A stretch of 64,000 nucleotides of DNA from Candidatus Omnitrophota bacterium (GCA_016934335.1 JAFGTC010000035.1:208-64207), one strand, 5' to 3'. Shown: positions 9,769-63,057, counted from the first letter of the stretch. Notes: generated by a model not told the origin, from the sequence alone. Translations and numbers: made by a program.

Positions 9769-9773
9769 AATTT

Positions 9774-10475: not shown

Positions 10476-10477
10476 TT

Positions 10478-14210: not shown

Positions 14211-14660
14211 TAAACTATTTCTCCTCCGAGACGCTCCAGGCTTATAAATTCGTAACTCTATACTTTTGAGACTCAATATTGCGCAATGACATGTTCTATG
14301 CATGAGTCAACAATTCTATATGTTTGTCTGCTTTATGAATGGAAATGTTCATCTTTTCACGAACATTCTTAGAATTTTAACTATCAAACTGGAACACTAT
14401 GGATTTTGATCAGATGAAGACAATCAGGAACAGGAAGAAGATGCCATTATAAACATTTCATAACAAAAGAATCATGAAGATATCTCCACGAGACTTAGAT
14501 TATGCAACATATTGATTATAATATATTTATATCTATATTTTTATCAATAAATCTTAACTACGCTGCCACGCATAAAAAATGCGTTTCCGATTGGACATTC
14601 ATCTTCGCGGATTCTCTCTCATCGCTATATTTATTATGCAAGCAATAACTGATCCAATTA

Positions 14661-15947: not shown

Positions 15948-16038
15948 GAGAGGCCTCCTTACCGCTAGACTCGTTTTATCTTTCGATCTTCCATTGCCGC
16001 ATTGCGTCTTTCAAGCTAAGCCTATTTCAGATTCAATG

Positions 16039-38118: not shown

Positions 38119-38316
38119 TCAAATAGTCCCCGTACTTTTTTTCGTTCTACTGACATGATTTCAAGAAAAACCGGATGCAGCAATTTATTTTATCGAGAAA
38201 AGTGATAATATTTCATCCGAAAAATAAAACTATCAATCTTTTTTCACTTTTTATCAATTTTTTGAAAAAAATTCAACTAGCGATTTCGTAACTTCTTGCT
38301 TGAAAGGAATGTAGTA

Positions 38317-40554: not shown

Positions 40555-40707
40555 GCGCGGAATCGATAAAAACGCTTGCTGATCGATCAACGCTCTGTAC
40601 AATAAAAAGCGGCGCCAGGACTGGCAGCACATCTTTTGACGCTTTGTACCGCCATCACGAATGCGCGCCGGCATGCAAAAACGCTGCAGGTTTTTATCGA
40701 AAAAACC

Positions 40708-41850
40708 ATGAAGAGCATTATTCCTCTATTTTTTGTGCTCCTGTCGGTCGGCGGCTATTGGCTGTTCTGGATCAACCAACAGAATCAAGCCCAATATTCC
40801 GGCTTTATCGAAGCGGAGGATGCGTCGGTCGGTTCGAAAATTAGCGGTCGGGTAGTGCATGTAGCCGTGCAGGAAGGAGACCGCGTCAAACAAGGCGATC
40901 TCCTGGTCACATTAGACAGCGACTCCCTCTCGGCCCGGCTGAAGGAAGCCGAAGCAGGATTAAAAATCGCCGAGAAGCGTCTGGAAGAATTACGAAACGG
41001 ATCCCGCCCCCAGGAAATCGAACAGATGCAGGCGCTTCATGAACAGGCGCGCCAGGAATGGATCCTCCTGCAAAACGGCCCCCGAGTTGAAGACATCCGC
41101 GCCGCGGAGGCCAATGTGGCGTCTGCATCCGCCGATTTAGCGCTGGCTTCGATCACCGAAAAAAGGCGGCGTGAACTTTTTGCCAAAAAAGATACAACCG
41201 CCGAAAATCTCGACCGCGCCGTGCAGGAACTTTCCGTCGCCCAAAACCGGCTCAACGCCTCCCTGGCCGAACTCGATAAATTGCGAGCCGGCTTCCGCAT
41301 CGAAGAAATTCAAGCCGCTGAAGCCAAAACAGCCGCCGCTTCGGCTTCTCTCTCACTCACCCTCGAAGGCCCTCGACAAGAAGAAATCGACCGGGCGCGC
41401 GCCGAAGTCGAACGGGCCAAGGCGCTCCTGAAGCAGGCCCAAATCGACTTGGATGAAACCACAATCGCCGCTCCCTCCGACGCCGTCGTGGAAGTGAGCC
41501 GCCTCCAGCCGGGCGACCTGCTTCCCGCCCGCCAAACCGCCGTCAACCTGATCCTCCTCCACCCCCTCTGGGTGCGCATCTACATCCCCGAGAGCCGCCT
41601 GGGAAGCGTCTCCATCGGAACAGAACTTCCTGCGACTGTCGCGGCCTACCCCGGCAAGACCTTCTCGGGACGCATCGTTCAAATCAATCGCCAGGCGGAA
41701 TTCACCCCTCGCAACGTGCAAACGCCGGAAACGCGCGACGACCTCGTCTTTGGCGTCAAAATCGAACTGGACGACCCCGAACAACTCCTGCGCCCCGGCA
41801 TGGTCGCCGATGTCGACATCCCCCTTCCAGCGCCCGACAGCGAGGATTGA
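40708..41850 (+). CDS. HlyD-family membrane-fusion protein (YbhG-like)
   Basis: N-terminal anchor, lipoyl-like VKQGDLLVTLD, coiled coil, and FSGRIVQINRQAEFTPRNVQT C-terminal block. Start set to ATG 40708. Confidence 0.8.
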   Translation: MKSIIPLFFVLLSVGGYWLFWINQQNQAQYSGFIEAEDASVGSKISGRVVHVAVQEGDRVKQGDLLVTLDSDSLSARLKEAEAGLKIAEKRLEELRNGSRPQEIEQMQALHEQARQEWILLQNGPRVEDIRAAEANVASASADLALASITEKRRRELFAKKDTTAENLDRAVQELSVAQNRLNASLAELDKLRAGFRIEEIQAAEAKTAAASASLSLTLEGPRQEEIDRARAEVERAKALLKQAQIDLDETTIAAPSDAVVEVSRLQPGDLLPARQTAVNLILLHPLWVRIYIPESRLGSVSIGTELPATVAAYPGKTFSGRIVQINRQAEFTPRNVQTPETRDDLVFGVKIELDDPEQLLRPGMVADVDIPLPAPDSED

Positions 41851-41853
41851 TCC

Positions 41854-42804
41854 ATGGAGCCAACCATTCGCGCCGAAGGATTGACGAAACGGTTCGGACG
41901 CTTTACGGCGGTGGATAATGTCAACTTTTCCATCTCGAAAGGCGAAATCTTCGGCTTCCTCGGCCCAAACGGATCCGGCAAATCAACCGTCATCCGAATG
42001 CTCTGCGGACTCTTGACTCCCACCGAAGGCGATGCATGGCTGCTGGGGATGAATATTTGCAGCGATGCGCCCGCCATCAAGCGGCGCATCGGCTACATGT
42101 CTCAACAATTCAGTCTGTATCGCGATCTGACTGTCCGAGAAAACATGTTTTTCTTTGGACAACTATACGGTCTTCCCCGATCACGCATCGAAGAACGAAC
42201 CCAAATACTCTCCGATTACCTTGGCCTCAATCCTTACAAAAACCGTCAAGCCGGATTGCTTTCCGGAGGATGGAGACAACGCCTGGCTCTCGCCTCCGCT
42301 CTGATGCATGAACCGGACATCGTCTTCCTGGACGAGCCGACCGCCGGCATTGATCCCGTCGCCCGGCGCGAACTCTGGAACCTCCTCTTCGATCTTTCCG
42401 CCCGTGGAATCACCCTGTTTGTGACGACGCACTACATGGATGAAGCGGAGCGCTGCACGCTGGTCGCTTACATCTACCTGTCCAAACTCATAGCCTTCGG
42501 CGATCCCTCCTCCTTAAAAAATCTGCCTGACGTCACGCCCAAAGGCTATCGGCGCCTCGAACTGTCCGCCCAGCCGCTTACACAACTGCTCGACCATTAC
42601 CGCCGCCACCCCTCCGTACGATCCGCGACGATCTTCGGAGAGGCGGCCCACTTGCTCGTCAAACAGGATTGGCCCAACGACGAAATACGCCGCTATGGAA
42701 CGGATCACGGATGGGAGGATCTTCTCCTCCGCGAAATCCCCCCGACCCTCGAAGATGTATTTGTCTCCCTGACTCTCGCGGAAGAAAAAAAACGACTTCC
42801 CTGA
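41854..42804 (+). CDS. ABC transporter ATP-binding protein (ABC-2/YbhF-like, single cassette)
   Basis: Walker A GPNGSGKST, signature LSGGWRQRLALASAL, Walker B VFLDEPTAGIDP. Confidence 0.9.
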   Translation: MEPTIRAEGLTKRFGRFTAVDNVNFSISKGEIFGFLGPNGSGKSTVIRMLCGLLTPTEGDAWLLGMNICSDAPAIKRRIGYMSQQFSLYRDLTVRENMFFFGQLYGLPRSRIEERTQILSDYLGLNPYKNRQAGLLSGGWRQRLALASALMHEPDIVFLDEPTAGIDPVARRELWNLLFDLSARGITLFVTTHYMDEAERCTLVAYIYLSKLIAFGDPSSLKNLPDVTPKGYRRLELSAQPLTQLLDHYRRHPSVRSATIFGEAAHLLVKQDWPNDEIRRYGTDHGWEDLLLREIPPTLEDVFVSLTLAEEKKRLP

Positions 42805-43870: not shown

Positions 43871-45268
43871 TCATCCTATAATTCTATGCATCCTTGATTG
43901 GATATCCTGCGCTTTTCCGGCCATGTTATTATTTTCAAGCGGATCGTTCTTTAAATCAAAGAGGAGAGCGCCTTCTCCAAATCCTTCTACTAACTTATAT
44001 TGTCCGTCAAAAACCAATTTCCAGTCATTTAATCCGGAGAGAACATACTCGCGATGATCGTTCTTCTCCCCTCTCATTAGAGGCATCAAAGAAAGGCTGT
44101 CCATATCGCCGGGAATAGGTAAATCGGCATAGTCTAGAAATGTGGCGGCTAAATCCATGAGACTCACCAGCGCATCGCTGACAACCCTGTGCTTCACTCC
44201 CGGCCCCGCCGCGACTAGAGGAATCCCAACCGACGGCTGATAAGGAACCGACTTCCCCCAGCGGTCATGATCGCCCAGCATCTCGCCGTGATCGCTGCTG
44301 TACACAATCAATGTATTTTCAAGTTCACCGCGCTTTTTTAATTCCTCGATATAAAGCGACGTCCAGCGATCAATGTTTTCCACCATTTCGGAATAGTTGC
44401 GGCGTATTTTCGTATGAGTCTCCGCATCGAATTGGGTATTGCTGTTTGGCGGAGGAAAATCAACGCCGTCATACAGGGCGTGCATGCGTCGAGTTACGTC
44501 CCAAGGATCGTGCGGGCCGGTAAAGTTGACTTGAAGAAACCAAGGCTCGCCTCGGGGAACGCCCCGAATCAAATCCAATCCGTTCTGACCGATCCAATTG
44601 TCGCAGTACGCTTCATCGGGAAGCAGCGTTGGGAATGTTGCGCTTTTTCCAGTTTTACGCCGCTGCATAAAATCCTGAATATGCGTCTCGCGCAGTTTTC
44701 TTTGCTCCAGATAAAACATGTAGGGATCTTTGGGAACATCCTTCCCGCTGTTAATGGCGTCCCATTTCCCCGCGTTATCGATGCCGTCTGAAAATCCCCA
44801 TTCGGGAAGAAGATGCTTTCCTTCCAAGCCCCAGGTTTTCGAGGCTTTATGCAGATCGAATTTGCCGCATCCCAACACTCGATAGCCCGCATTTCGGAGC
44901 AAGGTATAAAAAGTAGTCTGATCGAGCGGATAATCGACGCCGTTGTTCTTGACGCGGCAGCGTGAATATTCCTTCCCCGAAGCCAGCGAAGCCCGCGAAG
45001 GAGCGCACAAGGGAGACGGGCAAAACGCTCGCGTAAAACGCACGCCTCGTTTCGACAGCGATTCGAGAGCCGGCGTGCGAACGGGTATCTCCCTCGTAGT
45101 GGATATCCAATCGAATCGGTGTTGATCGGGCAGCAATAAAAGGATATTCGGCTGACTGACAGGCCGGATCGATGCGGCTTCCGCTTGGATAGACGACTTG
45201 GATGACAAAAGACTGGAAGCGGCGCCGGCGCCGATGGTCTTTAAGAAATCCCGTCTGGTCTTATTCAT
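43871..45268 (-). CDS. Cys-type sulfatase with Tat-type signal
   Basis: MNKTRRDFLKTIGAGAASS leader. PNILLLLPDQHR. Formylglycine motif CAPSRASLASGK. Start set to M10. Confidence 0.85.
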   Translation of the reverse strand: MNKTRRDFLKTIGAGAASSLLSSKSSIQAEAASIRPVSQPNILLLLPDQHRFDWISTTREIPVRTPALESLSKRGVRFTRAFCPSPLCAPSRASLASGKEYSRCRVKNNGVDYPLDQTTFYTLLRNAGYRVLGCGKFDLHKASKTWGLEGKHLLPEWGFSDGIDNAGKWDAINSGKDVPKDPYMFYLEQRKLRETHIQDFMQRRKTGKSATFPTLLPDEAYCDNWIGQNGLDLIRGVPRGEPWFLQVNFTGPHDPWDVTRRMHALYDGVDFPPPNSNTQFDAETHTKIRRNYSEMVENIDRWTSLYIEELKKRGELENTLIVYSSDHGEMLGDHDRWGKSVPYQPSVGIPLVAAGPGVKHRVVSDALVSLMDLAATFLDYADLPIPGDMDSLSLMPLMRGEKNDHREYVLSGLNDWKLVFDGQYKLVEGFGEGALLFDLKNDPLENNNMAGKAQDIQSRMHRIIG

Positions 45269-45373
45269 CTTCCCTCCCCTTCTCGCCTGAAGCATTGGTT
45301 CTAAATCGTCAAAATCATACCATGAATCCGCGTTGCTTTATATGAATCAATTCCGGCTCAAGAAACGACCATT

Positions 45374-47284
45374 TTATTGAATTTGGACATGCGCCCGCCA
45401 TTCGGCATTGTTTCCATGGACGCGCAGCATGAGAAAACTCATCGTCTCATCCGCCGGATTATCCGAGCACACGCCGGTAAATACCTCAAAATCGTTGGAA
45501 GATTGACATTGCATAACGATCTTGCCCGGCGAATCGCGCAGTTTCCATGAAATATTCAATGCTCCTTCACATTTTCCCGATCGAATGTCTCGAAGAAAAT
45601 CATACCCGTTCGAATCGTTAAAATGTTCGGCGTCTTCGAGCGAGACATCGCACGATTCCAACTCTCCGCGAATATGATAGAAAAGATCGTATCGATGCGA
45701 TTGATCGGATTTGGCTTGGATGAAATCCTCAATGCCGTCGCCCGCCAAACCAACGCTTCGCTGAATATCCACCCCGTCATACGCATCCTTCACCCCCGCG
45801 ACGACTTTACCTTCTTTATAGGAAATTAAATATCCCCCGCAGCGTTTTTGCCGTTGGCCGTCGACGACTAAAAGATTATGCGCGGCGGACGACCGGTACC
45901 AGGCGTTCAAAGGAATGCCATAGCCGGACGTTCCCAAATCGGGAATCAAAACATTTCCTTTTCCGAAAAGAATGAGATTCAAACGATCGAGATGATCGTG
46001 CCCGCCGCCGTATGGGCTGAATTTCAGATACGCATTCACATTTTTGTTTCGCAGAATGGCGACGCCGGAATCCTTAAACAGGACGCTTGGAGAGGCCAAT
46101 GTTTCAGATTCAGGAAGATCGACCGGGCCATACAACAATGCGTTGATGGATGTTCGATTTTTATTTCGATAGAAAGAAGACAAAGCGCTGCGCAAGACAG
46201 GATCGTCCCACAATGACGCCGCCGCTTCGTACAAGGAATCATAACTGTTGAGCGACTGCCCCGGCCATCCGTCATTGGCGGCGGGGAATTCGTCATTCGG
46301 AAAAGCGAAACGGATGGGAGACGTATACATCAACCGGAACTTTTCCGCTCCCGTAAGATCGCATCCTTGCGCTCGGGCGGCGATATAAAGCGGCTGCAGC
46401 GACGAAATCGTATAGAAGTGGTAACTGATCGAACCTTCAAACCAGAAGCCGTCTCCTCTGACGCCCTTCTGAATCTGGCTTCGAAGCCCATATTCGCCGT
46501 CAATGGCCTCCTGGATCAGTTTTTTGTCGCCTAGAGCGAATCCGACCAAACCGACGGCGGCGTTATGCCAACTGGGAATATTGTGAATCGATCTGGTTTG
46601 TTTATGGATAAATTCCGCATCAGGCCGCAAAAATTGATCCGCGATAATCCGCGTCTCCGACTCGCTCAGTGAAGTGCATACATCCCAATACGCTTCCGCC
46701 AAACGCACCAATTGAGTGGCTTCGTCAAGCGATTGCTCGCGAATCATTCCCTTCCCGGCATGACTGCCATGCGGTTCGAATTGATCGAAATGATCGGCGT
46801 ACCAAAGCAGAACTTTTTTTGTATACTCCAACCATTCTCGATCGCCGGTTATGCGAAACAGCACAGCCGACTGAGCGGCGGCGGACGAGATCTCGGAATG
46901 AACGATGGATCGCCAGCAATCGTCATACGGCGGGCCGGAATAAACGCGCCCGCATCCCGTACAAACATGCTCATGAGGTTTTTGGGGATCGAATCGCAGG
47001 CGCCGGGCGTCGTCGTCGCAATAATATTCATGCAGCCAGCCGGTCACCCCCAACGGCGGATGTTCATAGCGCGACATAGTGCGGCGGACGCTGCTCTTCA
47101 TTTGTTTGACAATTTGCTTCGCCCATTCATGCGCGGCGATTTTTTCATTCACCTGCGCCCAATCGACGCCTCGCGAACCGGGATTGGACGCCGGCGCCGC
47201 CAGGCAGCACGGCCGCCATGCCAGAATAAAGAACATGCCAAACGTCAAAAAGTTAAAAGCGCATCTACAAAAACTCTTTTTCAT
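45374..47284 (-). CDS. Heparinase II/III-like / alginate-lyase-fold polysaccharide lyase family protein
   Basis: The C-terminal block GGGHDHLDRLNLILFGKGNVLIPDLGT..YG...WYRSSAAHNLLVVDG is typical of the heparinase II/III domain. The N-terminal half is an alpha/alpha toroid. ATG 47284 is preferred over TTG 47293. Confidence 0.7.
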   Translation of the reverse strand: MKKSFCRCAFNFLTFGMFFILAWRPCCLAAPASNPGSRGVDWAQVNEKIAAHEWAKQIVKQMKSSVRRTMSRYEHPPLGVTGWLHEYYCDDDARRLRFDPQKPHEHVCTGCGRVYSGPPYDDCWRSIVHSEISSAAAQSAVLFRITGDREWLEYTKKVLLWYADHFDQFEPHGSHAGKGMIREQSLDEATQLVRLAEAYWDVCTSLSESETRIIADQFLRPDAEFIHKQTRSIHNIPSWHNAAVGLVGFALGDKKLIQEAIDGEYGLRSQIQKGVRGDGFWFEGSISYHFYTISSLQPLYIAARAQGCDLTGAEKFRLMYTSPIRFAFPNDEFPAANDGWPGQSLNSYDSLYEAAASLWDDPVLRSALSSFYRNKNRTSINALLYGPVDLPESETLASPSVLFKDSGVAILRNKNVNAYLKFSPYGGGHDHLDRLNLILFGKGNVLIPDLGTSGYGIPLNAWYRSSAAHNLLVVDGQRQKRCGGYLISYKEGKVVAGVKDAYDGVDIQRSVGLAGDGIEDFIQAKSDQSHRYDLFYHIRGELESCDVSLEDAEHFNDSNGYDFLRDIRSGKCEGALNISWKLRDSPGKIVMQCQSSNDFEVFTGVCSDNPADETMSFLMLRVHGNNAEWRAHVQIQ

Positions 47285-47330
47285 TGCCTCCAAATCCTTT
47301 CCACAGAGCGTTTCCTAAGAACTGTAGCCG

Positions 47331-52496: not shown

Positions 52497-53093
52497 ATGA
52501 GAGCATCAAGGAATGAACGCCAAGGTTTCACACTGATTGAACTGCTGATCGTCGTCGCCATCATCGGAATACTCGCCGCCATCGCCGTGCCCAATTTTCT
52601 TAATGCGCAAGTCCGCGCTAAAATCGCTCGCACCGAAGCCGATATGCGCAGCATCAGCACCGCGCTGGAAAGCTACCGGATTGACAGCGGCATCTATCCC
52701 CAATGGGCGGACGCCAACGGCGCAGCCAAGAATCCCGTCAACCGGCGCCTGATTGGACTGACAACGCCGGTCGCCTATATGTCTTCCGTTCCCAAAGATC
52801 ATTTTCTCTGGGGCGCGGCCGGACAACGCATAAACGACACCCAGCATGAAGCCTACGTAACCTACGATTATGTCGACGCCAGGTCCACCGTAAAATACGT
52901 GGGAGCGACAACCCTGGACGTATCTTTCCGCTGCGCAGAATGGCGTCTTGCCAGCGCCGGACCGGACGCCACGATGACCTATGGAGCGGTTCACTCGTTT
53001 GACGCCACCAACGGCCTGAACAGCAGCGGCGACATCGTGCGGACAGGGCCGCGTTCTTCCTACCCTTGCGATGGTTCGTTAGTCGGTAAATAA
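52497..53093 (+). CDS. GspG-like pseudopilin (paralog 3)
   Basis: MRASRNERQG|FTLIELLIVVAIIGILAAIAVPNFLNAQVRAKIA. LTTPVAYMSSVPKDHF. FDATNGLNSSGDIVRTG. Confidence 0.8.
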   Translation: MRASRNERQGFTLIELLIVVAIIGILAAIAVPNFLNAQVRAKIARTEADMRSISTALESYRIDSGIYPQWADANGAAKNPVNRRLIGLTTPVAYMSSVPKDHFLWGAAGQRINDTQHEAYVTYDYVDARSTVKYVGATTLDVSFRCAEWRLASAGPDATMTYGAVHSFDATNGLNSSGDIVRTGPRSSYPCDGSLVGK

Positions 53094-53235
53094 ATCGCCG
53101 GGCTCATCTCACCCGAATCGGCCGGAATTGAATAGAAAATCATACACGGGGGAGAGGCTGCGCCTCTCTCCCGCCAGTTGCTAAAAACTATTGGCAGAAC
53201 AGCCTCATTCGACTTTTTCTATTCATCTCCCTCCC

Positions 53236-53273
53236 AAAGAAAAGAGGATGGAGAGCGTGAACACTCCATCCTC
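53236..53273 (-). terminator. Rho-independent terminator of the 960-aa gene
   Basis: 10-bp stem GAGGATGGAG (53244-53253) / CTCCATCCTC (53264-53273), followed on the minus strand by UUUUCUUU. Confidence 0.6.
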
Positions 53274-53308
53274 GCAAGTCTTCTTTTATTACTTATTCTA
53301 CACGATTA

Positions 53309-56191
53309 TTAGTACAAATACCAATCCAGAACCGGCACGGCGCCATCGGCATACAAACTAAAGTTGTCGATGGCCCAGAATCCTTCGCTTTCGCCCGGAT
53401 CGGCGCCGGCGGCGTTAAAGCGAATCTTCACATCGCCCTGACCGGCGGCTTGTGGAACTTCAAATAAATAATGATCGAATTGAGCGTCTTCTTCGGAATC
53501 GTTCAACGCCATGCGATATGAGAAGATCGGCGTAAAGGCGGCGCCGCCGTCAATGCTGACTTCGATTGAGTAGGCGGAGCTGCTGTTGCCCGGCAGGCAT
53601 TCAGAATCGACGCCCACGACCAAACGGCTGCATGCACTGCAATCAAAAGAAGGACTCGTCAAAGTCGCCGAAGCGCCTTCTTCCTCGCCTTCCGCCCAAA
53701 TGGCATATCCTTGACCGGCAAGGTTATTCAAAGTACGGCCGTCGAAATCGCTTGGACCGTTGCCCGAGATCACGCTGTCAACCATCCGACTTTCAGGAGG
53801 TCGAGTCGCCCACGCCTGGGTTCCGCTGGGAGTATTTTCCCAATCGGCTGGGATGCCGCCCTCAAAACCTTCTGTCAGAATCAACGACAAACCGGCTGTT
53901 GGAGAGATATCATCGACGACGATATCATCGATGGCGATCCACCAATCGTCATTCGGCTCGTAATGGCGGAAACGAACCTTCACATCCGGGCTGCCAGCGG
54001 CGTCGGGAAGCAGAATGTTGACGGGGCCGTACAAGCCGCCGGTCTGCTGCTGATCCGTAAATCCAGCCTGCGGCAAAGGTTCGACGCTTCGCAGAGGAGC
54101 GATGCAGCGATATTGATTGACGAATGTTGCGCCTCCATCGGTGGAGACGTCAATATCGAAGACCGCCTCGCCATTATTGTTCAGTACGGCGGAAACATTC
54201 ATGTGCAGCCAAACCTCGGATGCTCCTTCCGCACTGAAACTGGGCGTGATCGCATCGTGTGAGCCTCCGGCGCCCGGCGTGTTGCTTCCGCCGCCGGCAT
54301 CCGAATCTGAAATCAAGAATTCTCCCGTTGTAGGCGAGCCGTCTGCGGAAGGCGGATTCGCTCTATCCGTTGTAGTCGTCCAAAGCGTGCCTGTTTCTTC
54401 CGCCGTTGGCGTATCCTCAAAGACCCAGCCTTCAAAAACTAAATCGCCATCGCTTTTGCCGTCGAAATTCTCGCTGAAAGGCAGCGCCGGATTTCCCTCC
54501 GCCCCTTCAACCGCGAGATAAATGTTATCGATCGCCCACCACCAGTCGTTGCCGGCGTCGAACATCCCCCAGGTCAAAGTCAGCTCCGAAGCGCCGTCCG
54601 GAATGGGAATCGTAAACATAAGCGCTTCATTATGAGCATCGTCGTGGAAATTCGGATCTTCTACAGGGAGAGAAACCCAGTAAAGCAGTTCGATAGGATC
54701 CCCACCGTCAAAAGAAGCAGTAAGATTCACTTTTTGATTGTCTTCATCACGCCAGCTGGAATTAAACGCCAGTGTGACAGTATCCGTATCGTAGTCAGCT
54801 AATGAGATAGGAGGCGTGCTAAGGTAACTATTATAAGTTCCGACATCGTGACCTGTATCATCCCATTCATCCGGATCAACGATTGCGACAACGCCGATTC
54901 CGTTTATGAATAAAGATCGCTCCTGATCTCCCGCAGCGGCAATCCAGGCATCTTTATCCGCAAAAGCCCAGCCCTGCCATTCAGGCTGCCCATCAGCCGG
55001 CAGTTTCGAGTTATCGATGGTCCAACCTTCGGGAGGAATATTGGTCCAATCGGTCCCGTCGCCGCCGCTTTCAGAGGGGAATGGCTCCAAGGTCAAACCT
55101 TCGAAATCTTCCTTGAAAATGACTTGCAAACCGGCCAGCATGCCCGGAACGGTTTTGGAAGCCACTTCTGAAAATTCTGATCGGGCGCCGTCTGCATCGA
55201 CATACTGCACTCGCGCATACACCTTTACGCTCGATCCAATCGGCAGATTTTCTTTGGGAATGGTAATTTGAGTCAGATCGGTCTCTAATTCTCCGGGACT
55301 GAAAAATACTTTTGTAAAATCAGGATCCAAAGCCGCTTCCCATAGCGTTTTGGCATGAGCAGAATCCAAGGGACTATTAAAATCAGAAGCCTTCAACAAA
55401 AGATCGGAGTATCCAACCGGCTCAACCGTGGTAATTTCGAGCGTCGGCGTATCCGGAGGCGCGATGTCCGCCCCACGAACAACCAGATTATCGAAAGCCC
55501 AGTACCAATCATAATCATGAAAACCATCCTGGCTTTCATTTCCATAAAGACGAAAACGTAATCCTACTGTTGTTGCGCCTTCCGGTTTCATAACAGCGAA
55601 AATCTCATGTCCTATATAATTAGCGTCATCACTATGGTTTGAATTATCCCATATAAATACAGATTCATACGTGGCGCCCTCATCCCACGTTACTTCTAAA
55701 GAAGCAATTTGGTTGTCATTATGTTTGTAGTGACTGTCAAATTCGATAGTCACCGCCACCTGGTCACCGGCATCAACGATGGGACTATCCAACCAGGTTC
55801 GAGCGCCTCGGTCGCCGAACAAATCGGAATCGGCAATCATAATTCCATCAAAGAAGCCTTCGGGATTATTATCTCGATCGCCTCCTTGAATATCCCATTC
55901 AAAGTCAAACAATGCAATCCAACTGGGATAGGGGAAAAGATCGTTATACCCATCTTCTTCAGGTCGAAGTTGAGCGGTGATCGTCCAACCTTCGGGTACA
56001 ATAGTCATGAATTCTCCCGCGGATATAGGCTGCCCTGTTTCGTGATCGATTACATCAGTCAGGGCGCCCGCCGCAGCATCATCAAAATTCTCTTCCAATA
56101 GCACTTGAGCAGAGACGGCCATCGGCAAAAGAATGATCGCGGTTACACAATAAAAAAGTGTTGTTTTTCTCATAACATTCCTTTCCTTCAT
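53309..56191 (-). CDS. 960-aa secreted protein built of four MAM/'choice-of-anchor J'-like beta-sandwich modules plus one Ig-like spacer
   Basis: Signal peptide. Four modules each open with E-[NDG]-F-[DE]-[DG] (ENFDD, EDFEG, ENFDG, EGFEG) and close with W-x-A-[IF]-D-[ND] (WYWAFDN, WWWAIDN, WWIAIDD, FWAIDN). The start may be M7 at 56173. Confidence 0.6.
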   Translation of the reverse strand: MKERNVMRKTTLFYCVTAIILLPMAVSAQVLLEENFDDAAAGALTDVIDHETGQPISAGEFMTIVPEGWTITAQLRPEEDGYNDLFPYPSWIALFDFEWDIQGGDRDNNPEGFFDGIMIADSDLFGDRGARTWLDSPIVDAGDQVAVTIEFDSHYKHNDNQIASLEVTWDEGATYESVFIWDNSNHSDDANYIGHEIFAVMKPEGATTVGLRFRLYGNESQDGFHDYDWYWAFDNLVVRGADIAPPDTPTLEITTVEPVGYSDLLLKASDFNSPLDSAHAKTLWEAALDPDFTKVFFSPGELETDLTQITIPKENLPIGSSVKVYARVQYVDADGARSEFSEVASKTVPGMLAGLQVIFKEDFEGLTLEPFPSESGGDGTDWTNIPPEGWTIDNSKLPADGQPEWQGWAFADKDAWIAAAGDQERSLFINGIGVVAIVDPDEWDDTGHDVGTYNSYLSTPPISLADYDTDTVTLAFNSSWRDEDNQKVNLTASFDGGDPIELLYWVSLPVEDPNFHDDAHNEALMFTIPIPDGASELTLTWGMFDAGNDWWWAIDNIYLAVEGAEGNPALPFSENFDGKSDGDLVFEGWVFEDTPTAEETGTLWTTTTDRANPPSADGSPTTGEFLISDSDAGGGSNTPGAGGSHDAITPSFSAEGASEVWLHMNVSAVLNNNGEAVFDIDVSTDGGATFVNQYRCIAPLRSVEPLPQAGFTDQQQTGGLYGPVNILLPDAAGSPDVKVRFRHYEPNDDWWIAIDDIVVDDISPTAGLSLILTEGFEGGIPADWENTPSGTQAWATRPPESRMVDSVISGNGPSDFDGRTLNNLAGQGYAIWAEGEEEGASATLTSPSFDCSACSRLVVGVDSECLPGNSSSAYSIEVSIDGGAAFTPIFSYRMALNDSEEDAQFDHYLFEVPQAAGQGDVKIRFNAAGADPGESEGFWAIDNFSLYADGAVPVLDWYLY

Positions 56192-56316
56192 CGATTAATT
56201 AGATTTTTTACCAGAAACAATTTTTGGCACAACCATTCATTTTTTAAACTTTATATTCCGGGCGCACCTCCTTTTAAATTTAATTTTATGTCTGAAGTCA
56301 TTCTTTAAAAATTAAT

Positions 56317-56931
56317 TCACGGGCAAGCACTTCCCATTCGATCTCGCCCCCAATCCAAAATAATGCAGCCGGACATATAATCGCCGCCGAAGCGAAAGAT
56401 ATTCCCACTGGATTTCAAACCGTTGGTGATGTCAAAGCGATCCATATCCGTCCCAAAGGGGAAAGGATCGTGTGAGGAGTTATCGTCAATAAAATCAGGG
56501 CCGTAACTCATCAAACTATAGGCTTGCTTGCGATAGGCCCCTGTATTGTCCGCTCCGCTGCCCATTTCATAATCAGGCCGTCCCTGCGGAGCATAGGCAT
56601 TGCTGGATTGCGATAAATACATTCTCATTTTTCTTTCCACAAATGGATCGGACGGCAAGGACGCTATGTAAGAAATGGGCGTTGTGAGTTTAAACAGGCC
56701 ATTCTCGCCATTCATATAATTATCAAGATCGTGGTCGCCTGGATAACTGCCGTTATCCAGAAGATACATCTCCAACGACGACGACAACGCTTTCATATCG
56801 GATTCAACCTTGGCAATCTTGGCTCGCATCTGAGCATTTAAAAAGTTGGGAACGGCGATAGCCGCCAAAATCCCGATAATGGCTACCACGATTAATAACT
56901 CGATCAACGTAAAAGCAGAATTCCGTTTCAT
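56317..56931 (-). CDS. GspG-like pseudopilin (paralog 4)
   Basis: MKRNSA|FTLIELLIVVAIIGILAAIAVPNFLNAQMRAKIA. LTTPISYIASLPSDPF. FDITNGLKSSGNIFRFG. Confidence 0.8.
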   Translation of the reverse strand: MKRNSAFTLIELLIVVAIIGILAAIAVPNFLNAQMRAKIAKVESDMKALSSSLEMYLLDNGSYPGDHDLDNYMNGENGLFKLTTPISYIASLPSDPFVERKMRMYLSQSSNAYAPQGRPDYEMGSGADNTGAYRKQAYSLMSYGPDFIDDNSSHDPFPFGTDMDRFDITNGLKSSGNIFRFGGDYMSGCIILDWGRDRMGSACP

Positions 56932-57157
56932 AAATCTCCTTTTTGGCTCGCAATCGCTTGATTGCTTTATTTCTAAAGAAACTTTAGTACTCAGGAATTA
57001 CGATCATGTTAATAATCCATTCAAGTTCACTAACAATATTAAATTTGTACAATTATAATAAAATTCAACTAAAAAAATCGATCTATATGTTAAGCATAAA
57101 ATTTTACTTATAAAAGGTTCTTGAAAAAAAATACCGCTTTTTTATTGGCATGGGAAA

Positions 57158-57185
57158 GGGGGCGGCTAAAACATCAGCCGCCCCC
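57158..57185 (-). terminator. GC-rich hairpin downstream of the 581-aa gene (probable terminator)
   Basis: 10-bp stem GGGGGCGGCT / AGCCGCCCCC with an 8-nt loop. Only UUU follows on the minus strand. Confidence 0.4.
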
Positions 57186-57241
57186 CTTCACTGCATCATT
57201 ACCGCTTGGAGAACGCTCTTATCGCGGATCTGACGTAAAAA

Positions 57242-58987
57242 TCAAAACATAAGCCACCTTGGCACAGCCGTATCGACGTTTTCTCCCCCAACCTTCCGGC
57301 TTTCTATCAACTCTCCGTTCACAAATACATTCAAATCATAGGTTTGCAGCCAAAAATCCGCATCGGAAATAGCGGCCACTATTTTCCTGAATGACGTGAT
57401 CACTTGATCCTGAGGATCGCTTGGATTTTCTACATCGACATAAATATTGATCTGATTATCTATACTTTCGACAGTATTATTAGAAAAATCATAGCCCGGC
57501 GTTGGAAATTCGCCGACCAGATAGACATTCGCGCTCGAATCACCCGCCGAAGGAATATCGACCTGAACATCAATCCAATTCCATGGATAAGCCGCCGGAG
57601 CGTCGACCAACGCGCCTCCAAGGGGAAGAGTCTCCAACGCAATTCCGTTTACAACGGCTGTCGCGTAATAGGTTCGCTCCCAAAGATCGGGAATCTCTAC
57701 GCTTCCGATCCATTCACTATAAGGCGAAACCACAGCCGGCTGCGGATCGGCGGGCTCTTCAACCGTCACGGAAACCGTGATCTGATCATCCTTTTTCTCG
57801 ACCGTTTTTTCGGTGAAAACGTATCCCGGCGAGGGAAATTCGCCGACCAGCATAAATCCCGTCTCCATGGATCCGCCATATGGGATTTCGAAGCGCAATT
57901 CCGCCCGGAACGGTAGACCTTCGCTCGGAACTAAAACCTCGCCTCGCACATGAAATTTGCTTTCCAACACAATTTGATCGTCGATTTGAAACAGAACGAC
58001 ATAATTTCCCGGATCAAGATCGGAAAATTCGTAGATCTTTTCGATGGGAACAATAACATCCTCTCCTATTTCATTATCGATAACAGTCCATCGGATCGCG
58101 ATGATATCGCCTTCCTGAACAATTTCCTCCTTGACGATTTCATAGGCTGTGCTGGAAAAAGCGCCCGCTACGGAAGCCTTTACTGTTTCTCCCACATTGA
58201 TTTCAAATGGATCAATGAATAATCTGGCGTCATGGAAGGGCCCTGAATCCGGCTGAGGTTCGGGAATCGGTTGAATAATATCGACTTTTGAATCCAATAC
58301 TTGGATCGAGTAGTCTCTTCTCAAAGCGCTGTTGACTTCCAGCGCCACATCGTACATTCCATCGTCAAGATCTATTTTGCCTATGGTTTCTTCAAAAGGA
58401 ACAATCACCGTAAGTTCTGGATTCTCCGGCCATTCGAAAATGACGCTGACTAAAATCCGGTTGTTTTCCAAAACAATATTGGAATCCAAAATCGAGTAGC
58501 CTGTGCTCGGATATTCCCCTTTTATTTTCACCCCAAAGGCGCTTCCCGCTTCCTCAGGAATGAATTGAACATCGACGGGAAACTTTGGGAGGCTATTATC
58601 GACAAGCAAAAATAATTTGTGTATGTCTGCTCCATTTTCCTTGAATATTACGTAATATTCTCCTTCGGGAAGAGGATCCAGTTTGATTGAAAAAAATGTA
58701 TTTTGCTCTTCGGGCGGAACAAAATCTCCGGGGATAAAACGCAGATTCACTTCCAAAACATTTTCTTGGATCCACGAATAGTCAATAATTTCAACTTCTT
58801 GAATCGGTGGAGACGGCAAAAGGCGCCCTTCAATGACAATAACATCGCGGGATGTCGGTTGATCCGGCTGAACGCTCAATCGGATTGGAAAAAGGTTATC
58901 GTCCGCTCCGAAATCCTCTCCAAAACCGATAGAACTCGTGAAACATAAAACAATGAAAACAAACAAGCCGCCGCTGCAAATTCGCAT
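57242..58987 (-). CDS. 581-aa secreted protein made of about five copies of an unrecognised ~100-aa repeat
   Basis: Signal peptide. Repeat anchors GEYPSTGYSILDSN, GAFSSTAYEIVKEE, GEFPSPGYVFTEKT and GEFPTPGYDFSNNT, plus a degenerate N-terminal copy. Each is followed by a ...I.V.V...P..P... strand pattern. Confidence 0.5.
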   Translation of the reverse strand: MRICSGGLFVFIVLCFTSSIGFGEDFGADDNLFPIRLSVQPDQPTSRDVIVIEGRLLPSPPIQEVEIIDYSWIQENVLEVNLRFIPGDFVPPEEQNTFFSIKLDPLPEGEYYVIFKENGADIHKLFLLVDNSLPKFPVDVQFIPEEAGSAFGVKIKGEYPSTGYSILDSNIVLENNRILVSVIFEWPENPELTVIVPFEETIGKIDLDDGMYDVALEVNSALRRDYSIQVLDSKVDIIQPIPEPQPDSGPFHDARLFIDPFEINVGETVKASVAGAFSSTAYEIVKEEIVQEGDIIAIRWTVIDNEIGEDVIVPIEKIYEFSDLDPGNYVVLFQIDDQIVLESKFHVRGEVLVPSEGLPFRAELRFEIPYGGSMETGFMLVGEFPSPGYVFTEKTVEKKDDQITVSVTVEEPADPQPAVVSPYSEWIGSVEIPDLWERTYYATAVVNGIALETLPLGGALVDAPAAYPWNWIDVQVDIPSAGDSSANVYLVGEFPTPGYDFSNNTVESIDNQINIYVDVENPSDPQDQVITSFRKIVAAISDADFWLQTYDLNVFVNGELIESRKVGGENVDTAVPRWLMF

Positions 58988-59474
58988 TACGATAATCCTC
59001 CTCGATCTATATATCTCAAAAAACCCGCTTCCACAAAAAAAACCACTTCCAATTTGCTTTATCTAATATCGGGAAAAATCTTTCAAATTTTTTAGATAGT
59101 TCCATTGATAGACATAAGTGGATCATAACGGACTTTCCCTGTCACACTACAGGGCATACCGGTTCGCACCATGGCGGTTCAGGAGAGTTAAGCGTTAGCA
59201 GATGCCTGAATCCGTGAATGAAGAAGTTAAAAAATGTATAGACGGCTTACATAGTAAAAAAATGAAGGCTGCGATGTTGCTTTAGTATGCGACGGATAAT
59301 TTGGATCAGTTTTTATCCCGCTTGCCAACCTTTTTGACTGGCCTATTTTCTCATAATCGCTCTCTAGTCCGTAGTTTTGAACAGACTGACAGCGCCGAAC
59401 CAGTTAACGCCTTCCTGGCATCAATGTAAATCGATGATCCTAATTGAGTAGGCCGGGGAAATTCCCCAATTAAT

Positions 59475-61193
59475 TCATTCCTGGATTTTCTTGTTATTGA
59501 TTCCGTCAGGAAAAGCGATCAGTTCGATGCCGTCTCCTCGGTTGAGATTTCTGGAATATTGCTTGTCCGTTGAATTGTTCCAATGTTCATGGACGCCGAG
59601 GCTGGCCAGTTTTACGCCGTCCTTCTCCGGATCGTAAATCGCGCCGGAGGGCGGATTGTCGGCCAGAGCGCATTCATGCAGAAAACTATCCACGCTCCCG
59701 TTGAAGCAGCGATTATTCTTAACAAGGTTGGGTTCGCTGCAGACGAAGTCGTATCCCACGGAATCGAGAGCGATGGGATCCTGGGACATCAAAAGGCTGG
59801 AGAACCAGTTATTGTTCATCGTCGACCAGCGAACGATGTCGCCGGTTTGAGTGTGCGACGTGTAAAGTCCGTCGAGCAGATACAAAAAGGTTTTGTCGTT
59901 TATCACTTTATGGCCGAGCAGAGAAGGATGGCAGTGCGAATCGCCATGCTTGTTGGGGCTTGCGTTATTCACTACGGCGAAATCGTGCAGGGCGACAGGC
60001 GTGTAAGCCTTTCCATCGAAAACAGAGCCAAAATGATTTTTTCCAATCATCGTGACGCCGAAGATGCTGTGCGGGCGAAACAGAGCGGCGTTGATCATGT
60101 AAGACGCCCGGGTGAACACTTTGGGAAAGTAGAGGGTTTGTTTTGAGCCGCCGGGCATATCGAAGTAGATCGGGCAGTTCATATCCGGCTCGGCGTAAAT
60201 ATACTGCGGCTTGTCCAGTTTGGATTTCCCGGCGAAAACGACTTGTTGGAAATCCTCTTGGGGATTGGAGCGGATTTTATCGTAGATCGGATCGCCGATA
60301 TGACGCGACGGATCGGTGAGAATAATATCCTCTCCCGGAACGCCGGCCTGCTCGATCAATTGCTTGACCAATGTATAAACCACTTGGGTGCTGGCGTGCC
60401 CTTTTTTCTCGCCGCGTTTTGAAGGATCGCCGTCCGTGTTGCAATTGAGTTTGACGGTGATGACTTCGCCTTTTTGATAGCCGCGGTCTTCCCCGCCCTG
60501 CGTTTTGTTGTGATGACGGAAGAGGGCTTCCCAGGCTTCCGCGTCCGTGTTTTCGCCGGTAAGCGATTGGAGGGATTGGGAGAACATGGCGTCGACGGTT
60601 TGTTGATCGGTGTTATCGTCATCCCACCAGAGACCGTCTTTTTCATTCCAGCGGGCGGCATCGAAGTCCTGCACCCATACCACGCGGCCGGGATGAATTC
60701 CCCGGGCTTCGCCCATAGGTTGATTGACGCCTTCGGGAGGGGTTAAAACCAAAGCCGCCGGCTCCGCCTGGAGCGAATCGGTGACGACAGCGGCAATTCC
60801 TCCAAATGCGACGCTTAGAAGAAGGAAGGCGACGACCATGGATTTGGAGTAATTTTTGCGGATGTTTCGGATCAAAGAGAAAGAGCCCAAAAAGACGATT
60901 GCATAAGCCAGAAAACTGCTCCCGATTCCAAGCGCAACCCGCTGGCAGGGATAGACGGCCCGGCTTGGTTTGGGGATTACGCGGATGAGAAACCAGAGTA
61001 CGGCCGCAAGGCTGATGACGGGAAAAAACAGCCGGCTTAGTTTGGAGTCGCATCGCAATCCGACAATTTTTCCCGTTCTGGGGCAGCGTTTGGTGAAACG
61101 ATCGATAATGAATGACAACTTCATGGGAGACGATTTGATTGTTGAACGCATGACGCCCGCTCCTTCATTGATTCGAAATGGTATTTGCTCCAT
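59475..61193 (-). CDS. Membrane-anchored DUF362-like protein
   Basis: Two N-terminal TM helices. GEVITVKLNCN...STQVVYTLVKQLIEQAGVPGEDIILTD and SQDPIALDSVGYDFV parallel the blocks in 2745-4544. Tentative. Confidence 0.45.
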   Translation of the reverse strand: MEQIPFRINEGAGVMRSTIKSSPMKLSFIIDRFTKRCPRTGKIVGLRCDSKLSRLFFPVISLAAVLWFLIRVIPKPSRAVYPCQRVALGIGSSFLAYAIVFLGSFSLIRNIRKNYSKSMVVAFLLLSVAFGGIAAVVTDSLQAEPAALVLTPPEGVNQPMGEARGIHPGRVVWVQDFDAARWNEKDGLWWDDDNTDQQTVDAMFSQSLQSLTGENTDAEAWEALFRHHNKTQGGEDRGYQKGEVITVKLNCNTDGDPSKRGEKKGHASTQVVYTLVKQLIEQAGVPGEDIILTDPSRHIGDPIYDKIRSNPQEDFQQVVFAGKSKLDKPQYIYAEPDMNCPIYFDMPGGSKQTLYFPKVFTRASYMINAALFRPHSIFGVTMIGKNHFGSVFDGKAYTPVALHDFAVVNNASPNKHGDSHCHPSLLGHKVINDKTFLYLLDGLYTSHTQTGDIVRWSTMNNNWFSSLLMSQDPIALDSVGYDFVCSEPNLVKNNRCFNGSVDSFLHECALADNPPSGAIYDPEKDGVKLASLGVHEHWNNSTDKQYSRNLNRGDGIELIAFPDGINNKKIQE

Positions 61194-61383
61194 TTACCAT
61201 TATCAACAAAGGCTGCGCCTATGCAAGCGGGATCCGATTGAATCTTCTTCATGACCGCCCGCCTTGCTCCCGCAAAAATCGCTGAGAATTGTGAAATTGT
61301 GATAAAATTGTGAAATTGAAGCATATATTTTTTTCTTCCATGCAACGCTGCATCAATCGCCGAAAGAAAAACGAGAGAAGATC

Positions 61384-63057
61384 ATGAACAGAAAATGCAT
61401 CCTTTTATCCTTGGCCTTTACCTGGATCATTTCGATGGATCCGTCTTTTGCGCAAACCATCGATGCGGATAACGATTTTATGTTCATCCATCATTCATGC
61501 GGGCAGAATTTATTGGACGGCGGTCTGCGGGAGGCATTGATCGGGAAAGAATTCATCGATGAAGTCAACGATATTTATTACGGCGATATGCTTTCTCCCG
61601 ATCCGGGGCGTCCTGCTTCATTGGGTGATGTTCCCGGGGATAACACCAACATGAATCACTGGATCTTTTGGTTCAATGATTACTATGCAGGAATTCGGCG
61701 CTTTGACGGCGAGGACGGCGTTAATTCCATCATCATGTTTAAAAGCTGCTTTCCCATCAGCGATATCTATGAAGATGGATCGCCGCCCGGGGATCCGTTT
61801 GACGAGAATCAAACGCTTGCCAATTATCAAAGCGTCTACCGAAAGTACGGCGATCCGAATGGGCATTATACGTACGACGGGAGCACGTACCGACCGTTAG
61901 AGCAGATATTCAGGGCTCATCCGGAGACGCTGTTTGTGGCGTGCACGTCGCCGCCTCTTCATTATTCTCCTTATGACGCCACAAGCGACGAAAATGCGGC
62001 CCGGGCGAGACGCTTCGCCGACTGGTTGAAAAATGAATGGCTGCCTGCTTATAACGCCGGCAATCCGGGGATGAACAACGTCGCCGTCTTCGATTGGTTC
62101 GACATACTGGCCTATCCCGACGATCATCCTCTCCATCCCAATCGGCTGCGGCAGGAATACGGCGGCGACGGCGGCGATTCGCATCCCAATGACGCCGCGA
62201 ATCGAGAAACGGCGCAGATTTACTCCGCGTTCATTACGGAAGCCTATCAACTGTGGCAATCGGGAGACGTCGCCCTGCCGACGCATACTCCAACGCATCC
62301 CTCGACGCCGATTTCTACTCCGACGCCGACGCCTGCGTCGACTCCCACAGCCACGCCGGCCCCGACGCCGACCCCGACTCCATTCGACATCGAACCGGGC
62401 ATGTTGATATTGCAAAAAGGCGTCCATCCAAGCGAAGTCTTCGAGGGGGCGTGGGATGCCGTCATAACCGATTTATGGGCGAGCAATGCGCAGTTAGGCG
62501 GGTGGGATGAATTGTCGACTTATCGCGACGATCAGGAGCGCCACCGTATCTTGATTCGATTCGACCTGGGATCGATCCCGCCGGATCAAGTCATTGAAAG
62601 CGCTTATTTATCGCTCTATCATCTGGGCAGCGAAGGCGATAATGATGCGCAGCAGATCGCCATCCATCGGATGACATCGGCATGGGCGGAAGGGAGCGGC
62701 GACAATCCATGGCCCTTGGAAGGATATGCTCCCGATGGAGCGACCTGGAGTCATGCGGCGCCCGGCATTCCCTGGACGACGCCGGGCGGCGATTTTGAAC
62801 TGGAGCCGATTGGCGAAACGCTCATTCCACCCTTCGAAAACGCCGATTGGCTGTCGATCGAGATTACGGATTATGTGAAGGAATGCGTCGAAAACAATGC
62901 GCCTAACTATGGCGTCATGATTCGCGCTACAGAGGGCGAATGGTACGGCCATCGTTTCGCCAGCAGCGATTACGAGACGGCTGAGTTGCGACCTCGTTTG
63001 ACGATCGCCATTGCACAGGAGTCGCCAGTCGACATACGGGACTGGATCCTATATTAG
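61384..63057 (+). CDS. Secreted two-domain protein: SGNH-like N-terminal domain, Pro/Thr linker, C-terminal DNRLRE-type domain
   Basis: Signal peptide. FIHHSCGQN / GDSHPNDAANRE, SGNH-like and tentative. Linker PTHTPTHPSTPISTPTPTPASTPTATPAPTPTPTP. C-terminus HRILIRFDLGSIPPDQVIESAYLSLY...IHRMTSAWAEG is typical of DNRLRE domains. Confidence 0.5.
   Translation: MNRKCILLSLAFTWIISMDPSFAQTIDADNDFMFIHHSCGQNLLDGGLREALIGKEFIDEVNDIYYGDMLSPDPGRPASLGDVPGDNTNMNHWIFWFNDYYAGIRRFDGEDGVNSIIMFKSCFPISDIYEDGSPPGDPFDENQTLANYQSVYRKYGDPNGHYTYDGSTYRPLEQIFRAHPETLFVACTSPPLHYSPYDATSDENAARARRFADWLKNEWLPAYNAGNPGMNNVAVFDWFDILAYPDDHPLHPNRLRQEYGGDGGDSHPNDAANRETAQIYSAFITEAYQLWQSGDVALPTHTPTHPSTPISTPTPTPASTPTATPAPTPTPTPFDIEPGMLILQKGVHPSEVFEGAWDAVITDLWASNAQLGGWDELSTYRDDQERHRILIRFDLGSIPPDQVIESAYLSLYHLGSEGDNDAQQIAIHRMTSAWAEGSGDNPWPLEGYAPDGATWSHAAPGIPWTTPGGDFELEPIGETLIPPFENADWLSIEITDYVKECVENNAPNYGVMIRATEGEWYGHRFASSDYETAELRPRLTIAIAQESPVDIRDWILY

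Follow-up and report, generated by a model that had tools for sequence, protein, structure and literature searches.

Bacterial C-terminal sorting signals have earlier led to envelope machineries, namely sortases, exosortases, rhombosortases, the type IX secretion system (T9SS) and myxosortases. To our knowledge, all described signals of this kind are either tripartite, with a motif, a transmembrane helix and a basic cluster, or folded domains. The stretch of DNA analyzed here, 64,000 nucleotides from Candidatus Omnitrophota bacterium (GCA_016934335.1, JAFGTC010000035.1:208-64207; hereafter the window), encodes three neighboring secreted proteins that end in a common tail of about nine residues, first pointed out in a reading made from the DNA alone (the sequence-only reading). 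C-terminal sorting signals are known as a kind, and the anatomy of this tail is unlike that of every described bacterial class.

The closest described systems share some traits with the tail. A tripartite signal (LPXTG, PEP-CTERM, GlyGly-CTERM, MYXO-CTERM or PGF-CTERM) joins a motif, a hydrophobic segment of transmembrane length and a basic cluster, and inner-membrane retention of the precursor applies to all known sortase, exosortase, rhombosortase and myxosortase substrates (bioRxiv 10.1101/2023.06.07.544157). Like the tail, these signals are short and lineage-restricted, occur on many unrelated signal-peptide proteins per genome, and swap with other anchors in homologous families ("choice of anchor"). 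They span 20–40 residues, whereas the tail spans 9–12, corresponds to the signature-motif part only and has an aromatic end; no membrane-embedded sorting enzyme can be invoked for it. The T9SS C-terminal domain (CTD; Por_Secre_tail, type A/B) stands at the same position in homologues as the tail and marks Sec-exported proteins for outer-membrane passage and surface attachment, but it is a folded beta-sandwich of 70–100 residues that is detectable with hidden Markov models, compared to about nine disordered residues here. A disordered terminal segment of a mature, Sec-exported protein also serves as a linear signal in TcpF/TcpB of Vibrio cholerae, where the minor pilin TcpB binds the export signal of TcpF, and in CofJ/CofB of enterotoxigenic Escherichia coli (PMC10120004); the disorder of the tail comes from AlphaFold2 (AF2) models. 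The TcpF and CofJ genes adjoin pilin genes (PMC10120004), as tail genes do in part, in cases that are non-independent. The TcpF and CofJ signals are N-terminal, unrelated in sequence and limited to a single substrate per system, whereas the tail is C-terminal and would have many substrates. In concept, the tail resembles eukaryotic KDEL/HDEL, the peroxisomal targeting signal 1 (PTS1, -SKL) and dockerin–cohesin pairs, in which a short C-terminal code or small module is read non-covalently. This is an analogy only, and KDEL/HDEL and PTS1 differ from the tail in domain of life, compartments and sequences.

The shared tail, its statistics and its carriers

The three open reading frames (ORFs) had exactly the coordinates, lengths and endings given in the sequence-only reading. 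Tail positions are numbered with the last residue as 0. The tail-bearing genes, and one gene with a similar end, are as follows:

53309-56191, minus strand: 960-aa secreted protein with four MAM/reelin-like jelly-roll modules, tail carrier (ORF, translation)
53312-53347, minus strand: tail of the 960-aa protein, DGAVPVLDWYLY, stop codon at 53309-53311; register V-8, V-6, D-4, W-3, L-1, Y0
57242-58987, minus strand: 581-aa secreted protein with repeated Ig/macroglobulin-like beta-sandwich modules, tail carrier (ORF, AF2)
57245-57277, minus strand: tail of the 581-aa protein, VDTAVPRWLMF, stop codon at 57242-57244
61384-63057, plus strand: 557-aa secreted protein with an N-terminal domain of ~300 aa, a Pro/Thr linker, a DNRLRE/CBM96-like domain and the tail (Pfam, NCBIfam)
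63019-63054, plus strand: tail of the 557-aa protein, ESPVDIRDWILY, stop codon at 63055-63057
2748-2774, minus strand: SGVETWPNY, with which the DUF362 protein (2745-4544) ends, possibly a degenerate tail; S-8, V-6, W-3, Y0, with N at -1 rather than L, M or V

The 960-aa protein thus terminates in ..AVPVLDWYLY and the 557-aa protein in ..PVDIRDWILY. Sec-type signal peptides were present at the N-terminus of all three proteins, and Pfam and NCBIfam scans found no domain common to them, in agreement with the unrelated architectures that had been claimed. The 960-aa protein matched Reelin_subrepeat-B (E 1e-13) as its sole Pfam family and no NCBIfam family at E ≤ 0.01; the earlier assignment to "choice-of-anchor J" was therefore not borne out, and the fold is MAM/reelin-like. 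In the 581-aa protein, the sole signal of the domain scan was a PrcB_C-like repeat below threshold. The 557-aa protein matched CBM96 and Disaggr_repeat in Pfam and DNRLRE_dom in NCBIfam (E 2e-20), whereas an exact look-up of it returned no record and a PDB sequence search no match. The tails themselves were covered by no Pfam or NCBIfam model, sorting-domain models included. No further protein ended in W-x-[LM]-[YF] when all 45 non-overlapping ORFs in the window were compared. The DUF362 protein ended in SGVETWPNY as had been reported, and judging by its residues this may be a degenerate fourth copy; a second DUF362 protein (59475-61193) lacked the tail.

At the DNA level, the three tails were identical at only 11–16 of 33 nucleotides, with different codons, and at 16–28 of the 80 nucleotides downstream. 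Because the codons differ and the downstream DNA is unrelated, the likeness is selected at the peptide level. A DNA repeat or mobile cassette was rejected as the origin of the tail, the likeness residing in the peptide only.

The W-x-[LM]-[YF] tail of the sequence-only reading proved to be real, recurrent and specific to the C-terminus, but the motif is longer than had been proposed. From 43 non-redundant tails in homologues and neighboring loci, the extended motif is [TSV]-x-[VI]-x-[DNE]-W-x-[LMV]-[YHF]-COOH, with the following composition (n = 43):

Position -8: T 26, S 7, V 7
Position -7: S, P, A or G
Position -6: V 37, I 3
Position -4: D 13, N 7, E 5, G 5
Position -3: W 43/43, as demanded by the collecting pattern
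Position -2: S 13, E 11, L 4, others
Position -1: L 29, M 4, V 3, A 3
Position 0: Y 33, H 6, F 4

Positions -8, -6, -3, -1 and 0 are conserved and positions -11 to -9 variable. A few tails carry one or two residues past the Tyr (E, N or SH) and, once, four (NTKY), the cases being P0121, P0260, P0243, P0174, L022 and L023.

Specificity for the C-terminus was evaluated with regular expressions on locally assembled ORF sets, because a 12-column profile cannot reach significance against a database of 5.8 billion proteins. Chance expectation was taken from how often [VIL]..W.[LMIVA][YF] occurs at internal positions of proteins. The window contained three C-terminal matches compared to 0.002 expected (Poisson P 2e-9). 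An independent sample of 570 ORFs, from 80 metagenome loci picked only for a pseudopilin gene, contained three exact C-terminal matches compared to 0.03 expected (P 6e-6), and one more with a single residue past the Tyr. One of the three, a WD40 protein (L027) ending in ..IERWVVY, was taken as a chance match, being a cytoplasmic-looking repeat protein with no signal peptide. An agnostic scan, which covered all two- and three-residue patterns within the five C-terminal positions of 763 ORFs, a set that includes homologous MAM-like genes that had served as queries, ranked ".W.LY$" first (15 matches vs. 0.044 expected, P 4e-33), and the next 15 patterns were all sub-patterns of it. Signal peptides were found in 20 of 22 tail proteins compared to 249 of 707 others (Fisher P 1e-7; crude predictor), and additional tail genes made up ~1–3% of the genes in the flanks.

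These numbers bear on the reading that the common ending reflects chance, an annotation artefact or plain common ancestry of the three genes. The motif is short, was defined post hoc and draws many of its examples from two families, all of which speak for such a reading. It is effectively refuted by the independent-sample statistics, the occurrence on at least eight unrelated architectures, the lack of DNA similarity and the lack of common domains in the window proteins, and we regard its probability as close to nil.

The tail occurs on at least eight unrelated architectures. MAM-like carriers comprise the 960-aa protein and a family of 595 aa, and carriers from the flanks of tail genes and from the pseudopilin-selected metagenome loci are either without a Pfam match or contain CBM9 (locus L093), with lengths of 267, 359, 489, 496, 512, 578, 684 and 722 aa. 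In one metagenome-assembled genome (MAG; GC154_ locus tags), the tail was present on two families. Loss of the tail in orthologues, which the sequence-only reading had named as evidence that would count against a signal, was not seen. Specifically, the orthologue of the 960-aa protein in Candidatus Hinthialibacter sp. (P0121, 86% identity) ends in ..VPVVDWFLYE, and an orthologue at 43% identity (P0242) also keeps the tail. Planctomycetota and Verrucomicrobiota relatives of the 960-aa protein stop after the last jelly-roll strand (..WWWAIDNVEVxGxxxx) or continue into PEP-CTERM or dockerin, whereas about a dozen relatives add ..[ST]xVxxWxLY, with tails such as ..GTPVQDWSLY (P0189), ..GTAVSNWSLY (P0192), ..TPIMDWTLY (P0155) and ..TSVPDWSLF (P0240).

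When 1.84 billion representatives were searched exhaustively with phmmer, the 581-aa protein had only 25 relatives, at ~20% overall identity, and the tail ends about 20 of the 25 (e.g., ..VTAVEKWLLY, ..ATAVQDWAMY, ..PSAVAGWELY and ..ETSVNHWSLY). A further homologue search with the gappy 25-sequence alignment gave two proteins only. The ~300-aa N-terminal domain of the 557-aa protein is widely distributed across organisms, and its homologues end otherwise, in a T9SS CTD (PF18962 in some), PEP-CTERM, DUF11, dockerin, SLH, FlgD-Ig or a transmembrane segment plus RRR. The tail was found on three relatives (P0003, P0004 and P0016, ending in ..GPVPVTDWVMY, ..GPVPVTDWVVY and ..GTGVTEWAVF), and in P0003 and P0004 it directly follows the N-terminal domain and a bare Pro/Thr linker. 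Alternation with known anchors, which the sequence-only reading had raised, was thus observed in homologous families. Comparison of these proteins shows, at the level of their sequences, that the tail is under purifying selection as a peptide, and that it is an add-on past the last folded domain, in place of the secretion or anchoring modules of other phyla.

Predicted structure and comparison with known signals

Structure prediction was carried out for two unrelated carriers. The AF2 model of the 581-aa protein, from the 25-sequence alignment, was an all-beta string of sandwich domains with a mean predicted local distance difference test score (pLDDT) of 76.6, in which residues 568–581 had pLDDT <50 and no secondary structure. 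The model of P0192, of the 595-aa MAM-like family, had a pLDDT of 80 and a predicted template modeling score (pTM) of 0.71; its last strand (WFWGLDNVTILG) ran to residue 584, followed by coil from 585 to 595, with the final five residues at pLDDT <50. Fold searches matched the P0192 model to the reelin N-terminal region, RPTPmu MAM-Ig and meprin MAM, and the 581-aa model, weakly, to TEP1/alpha-2-macroglobulin Ig-like arrays. Because it is coil with pLDDT <50 in two unrelated carriers, the tail does not seem to be part of a fold and is predicted to be a flexible extension outside any fold.

This prediction bears on the reading of the tail as a small functional or structural appendage, for binding of glycans or the cell's own polysaccharide, for oligomerization, or as a domain cap. 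Trp and Tyr typically stack on sugars, many carriers are carbohydrate-binding- or adhesin-like (MAM-like, CBM9, CBM96/DNRLRE), and the organism is a polysaccharide degrader (PMC9324843). The predicted disorder, with no packing on the last domain of either model, argues against an appendage, as does the placement of the tail after very different terminal domains or a bare linker, and its strict terminal position and swapping with anchor modules suit targeting better. We consider an appendage improbable.

The tail was also distinct from the known sorting signals, as the sequence-only reading had held, with no Pfam or NCBIfam sorting-domain match and no transmembrane segment. A tripartite sortase-type signal was rejected: the proteins end 0–2 (once 4) residues past the motif with no hydrophobic stretch, the termini are Y, H or F with no Arg/Lys cluster, and the three window proteins had no PEP-CTERM (PF07589), LPXTG or GlyGly-CTERM match in Pfam or NCBIfam. 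A T9SS CTD was likewise rejected, as no PF18962, TIGR04183 or type B match was found and the modeled tail is disordered and ~10 residues long. Type I secretion signals are uncleaved C-terminal segments of ~50 residues, on proteins with no Sec signal peptide and often with RTX repeats. Such a signal was discarded for the tail, since a Sec signal peptide is present in 20 of 22 carriers and no RTX or HlyA-type domains were found.

The same features bear on a cleavage-and-attachment signal, by which a periplasmic or outer-membrane transpeptidase, PorU-like in function, would remove the tail and link the protein covalently to lipopolysaccharide, peptidoglycan or lipid. The tail sits where homologues have PEP-CTERM, T9SS CTD or LPXTG-like modules, and the conserved small or polar [TS]-[SPA]-V ahead of the aromatic core could be a cleavage site. 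With neither transmembrane helix nor basic cluster, however, the precursor cannot be held in the inner membrane; there is no folded CTD, and a candidate enzyme was seen in no neighborhood examined. A signal of this type has a low probability in our assessment.

Another reading concerns the terminal aromatic residue. The tail might be a beta-signal-like or PDZ-ligand motif, read by the beta-barrel assembly machinery (BAM), the translocation and assembly module (TAM) or periplasmic PDZ proteins (DegS/DegP/Prc/CtpA, GspC PDZ) for quality control, processing or insertion. The beta-signal of outer-membrane proteins (OMPs) and the chaperone-usher C-terminal motif are likewise C-terminal with an aromatic last residue, the terminal Tyr/Phe and apolar C-terminus of the tail resemble both OMP termini and PDZ ligands, and the PDZ domain of EpsC/GspC is needed for secretion of a subset of type II secretion system (T2SS) substrates (PMC12369372). 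The OMP beta-signal alternates hydrophobic residues at 0, -2, -4 and -6 in the last barrel strand, whereas the tail has hydrophobics at 0, -1, -3 and -6, with polar residues at -2 (S/E) and -4 (D/N/E). Its terminal residue (Y 33, H 6, F 4) also differs from the Phe-dominated beta-signal, and its carriers are soluble multi-domain beta-sandwich proteins rather than barrels. A true porin of a tail-bearing genome (BBP2, OmpL-like; L009 19833-20933, plus strand) has the canonical end ..LAVEVVYSF. The BAM alternative offered by the sequence-only reading is thus disfavored. PDZ ligands present a free C-terminal carboxylate, and their specificity comes mainly from positions 0 and -2. In the tail, position 0 is conserved, but -1, usually ignored by PDZ domains, is also among the most conserved positions and -2 is variable, and the tails with residues past the Tyr do not fit a strict free-carboxylate reading. 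Recognition by BAM, TAM or PDZ proteins is accordingly an unlikely explanation.

Pseudopilin neighborhood and the candidate receptor

We favor the view that the tail is probably a C-terminal signal for sorting or docking that is specific to the Hinthialibacterota (OLB16) lineage, acting as a flexible linear peptide of ~9 residues; the role in sorting or anchoring is one that we infer from sequence comparison. Named tail carriers were all from OLB16/Hinthialibacterota MAGs, and the other tail-bearing relatives were labeled "bacterium" or "Candidatus Omnitrophota bacterium". A scan of genome contigs with the 595-aa family found seven loci, labeled "uncultured bacterium" or "Candidatus Omnitrophota". 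OLB16 (= Ca. Hinthialibacterota) was once lumped with Omnitrophota (PMC9324843), which has been described as a misclassification (PMC10066038).

As a sorting signal, the tail would act after Sec export and periplasmic folding, which would leave it exposed. An envelope receptor would then bind it non-covalently as a linear peptide, in a mode nearer to a dockerin or a KDEL/PTS1-type tag than to a sortase substrate, and would pass the protein across the outer membrane, hold it on the outer membrane, or both. On binding, the tail may become a short helix or strand, a speculation from the 3-3 spacing of V(-6), W(-3) and Y(0) and the [TS]-[SPA] N-cap. The genes beside the tail carriers suggest one receptor in particular. 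GspG-like pseudopilins of the window are as follows:

56317-56931, minus strand: 204 aa, next to the 960-aa gene on its upstream side (Pfam N_methyl + T2SSG; NCBIfam GspG 66 bits, below cutoff)
52497-53093, plus strand: 198 aa, the second near the tail genes, converging on the 960-aa gene from its 3' side (Pfam N_methyl + T2SSG)
24209-24880, plus strand: further GspG-like pseudopilin
38296-38907, plus strand: further GspG-like pseudopilin

These four paralogues in 64 kb are identical in their first ~24 mature residues (FTLIELLIVVAIIGILAAIAVPNF) and divergent in their C-terminal domains, and an N-terminus of the FTLIELLIVVAIIGILAAIAVPNF type recurs in all related loci. The 581-aa gene, the pseudopilin at 56317-56931 and the 960-aa gene form a series on the minus strand. 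On the same strand, at ~53230-53275 and just past the stop codon of the 960-aa gene, the DNA has a long GC-rich hairpin and then a T-run (GAGGATGGAGTG..CTCTCCATCCTCTTTTCTTT), likely an intrinsic terminator closing this gene string.

Orthologues of the 56317 pseudopilin (58–81% identity), with a C-terminal ..SGC[LI]I[LM]DWG..GSxC, adjoin a MAM-like tail gene immediately upstream in L005, L006 and L009 and immediately downstream in L011. The orthologous pair is thus present in five genomes, including that of the window, despite the flipped gene order. A sixth genome (L007) has a different, non-orthologous pseudopilin downstream of the MAM-like gene, and additional adjacent pairs of tail gene and pseudopilin were found in L022, L023 and L093 (the CBM9 carrier). 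Over the window and the tail-centered loci, a pseudopilin adjoins 8 of 15 tail genes compared to 10 of 131 other genes (Fisher P 4e-5). For the MAM-like family, these data make the pseudopilin link convincing; for the tail in general, the link is no more than suggestive.

For the MAM-like proteins, the GspG-like pseudopilin conserved next to their genes could serve as a carrier, and, by analogy with TcpB, a type IV filament (T4F) or T2SS-like pseudopilin apparatus is the receptor that we favor, tentatively, as one that is possible although doubtful. A broader proposal is that the tail is a short linear C-terminal "address code", read non-covalently by pseudopilin/T2SS-like machinery, with an estimated dozens of substrates per genome; this we judge unlikely.

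Several observations weigh against a sorting signal or against its link to pseudopilins. No receptor, protease or transporter was identified, and the ~20 kb neighborhoods contained no candidate sorting enzyme. The tail is absent from clearly secreted proteins of the window, namely an S8 subtilase, a PL11 lyase, a beta-helix protein and an S9-like hydrolase, and for this reason it is not a general outer-membrane export signal. The adjacency cases are not independent, as six of the eight are MAM-family orthologues, and pseudopilin genes are dense, at ~7% of genes. No adjacent pseudopilin was present at the 557-aa gene, at the MAM-like loci L004 and L010, or at the 581-family loci L093, L094 and L095. 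Planctomycetota and Verrucomicrobiota have similar pseudopilin expansions, yet their homologues lack the tail. An assembly ATPase or secretin was found near none of the window pseudopilins or tail genes, and in the pseudopilin-selected metagenome loci T2SS-E-like ATPases occurred only in loci without tail proteins.

Curated models (Pfam, NCBIfam) and the searchable literature contained no description of the tail that we could find, and a literature search on the peptide strings gave noise only. A nine-residue tail with no membrane anchor would imply a different recognition logic from that of the described signals, with a soluble or outer-membrane receptor reading a free peptide; that the tail represents such a new logic has a minority chance. 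If the address-code proposal is true, the tail would be the first generic linear signal known to direct secretion or display by a T2SS/T4F-type system, and the large expansions of pseudopilin paralogues in phyla related to the Planctomycetota–Verrucomicrobiota–Chlamydiota (PVC) group would gain a function. A pseudopilin receptor would also be relevant to how T2SS/T4F systems choose substrates, a question that has long been open. As a sorting signal, the tail could further serve as a regular-expression-level predictor of the secreted or surface sub-proteome of an uncultured polysaccharide-degrading phylum, and as a handle on its receptor, as peptide bait or co-folding query.

Other genes of the window and further recurrent endings

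The remaining genes of the window include transport and glycan-degradation functions:

8500-14303, minus strand: apparent tripartite efflux operon, with MacB-like permease, ABC ATPase, HlyD-like adaptor and TolC-like outer-membrane efflux protein
40636-42804, plus strand: second HlyD and ABC pair
6593-8461 (minus), 36162-37358 (plus), 43871-45295 (minus), 45374-47293 (minus), 14661-15947 (minus), 18212-19663 (minus): glycan-degradation genes

The cell is taken to be diderm because the window encodes the TolC-like/HlyD/MacB operon. The glycan-degradation set consists of a PL11 rhamnogalacturonan lyase, a BNR sialidase-like protein, a sulfatase, a heparinase II/III-like lyase and GFO/IDH/MocA oxidoreductases; these oxidoreductases, two of which were scanned with Pfam, have Tat-signal-like N-termini. 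A polysaccharide-degrader lifestyle has been proposed for Ca. Hinthialibacter (PMC9324843), which these genes fit. In two distant genomes, the 595-aa MAM-like tail gene has a GH116 glycosidase a short way downstream (L001/L004 15784-19041; L003/L007 ~13064-16882), a neighbor that may reflect a functional link of the MAM-like proteins to glycan use.

Other endings also recurred among the homologues. The ending ..RLRPPW[LF][LF]C[PH], on homologues of the 557-aa N-terminal domain from other metagenomes (P0023, P0031, P0037 and P0110), may from its sequence be a further undescribed tail. Another subgroup of these homologues (P0032, P0054, P0070, P0081 and P0096) has the recurrent end ..GEFDF[AST]L[TIL]PG[ES]x, and those containing DUF11 (P0011, P0013, P0022, P0026, P0033, P0040 and others) have a conserved terminal ..ANG..[VI]YLPL[VI]LK[ED]... 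Among Ig+MAM-like homologues of the 960-aa protein in Verrucomicrobia and Planctomycetes (P0134, P0147, P0159, P0160, P0164, P0219 and many more), the end ..[FY][FY]R[ALVI]xx was frequent (e.g., ..QAYFRAR, ..KYYRLKK and ..RFFRVKQ); by its residues, it could be either a last strand that is conserved or a terminal motif of its own. In many members of the 581-aa superfamily (P0244-P0266; L010 8092-9561), an amphipathic helix (xLLxxILxG/N) stands 10–15 residues ahead of the tail, from which some 581-aa-type families may possess a slightly larger conserved C-terminal unit.

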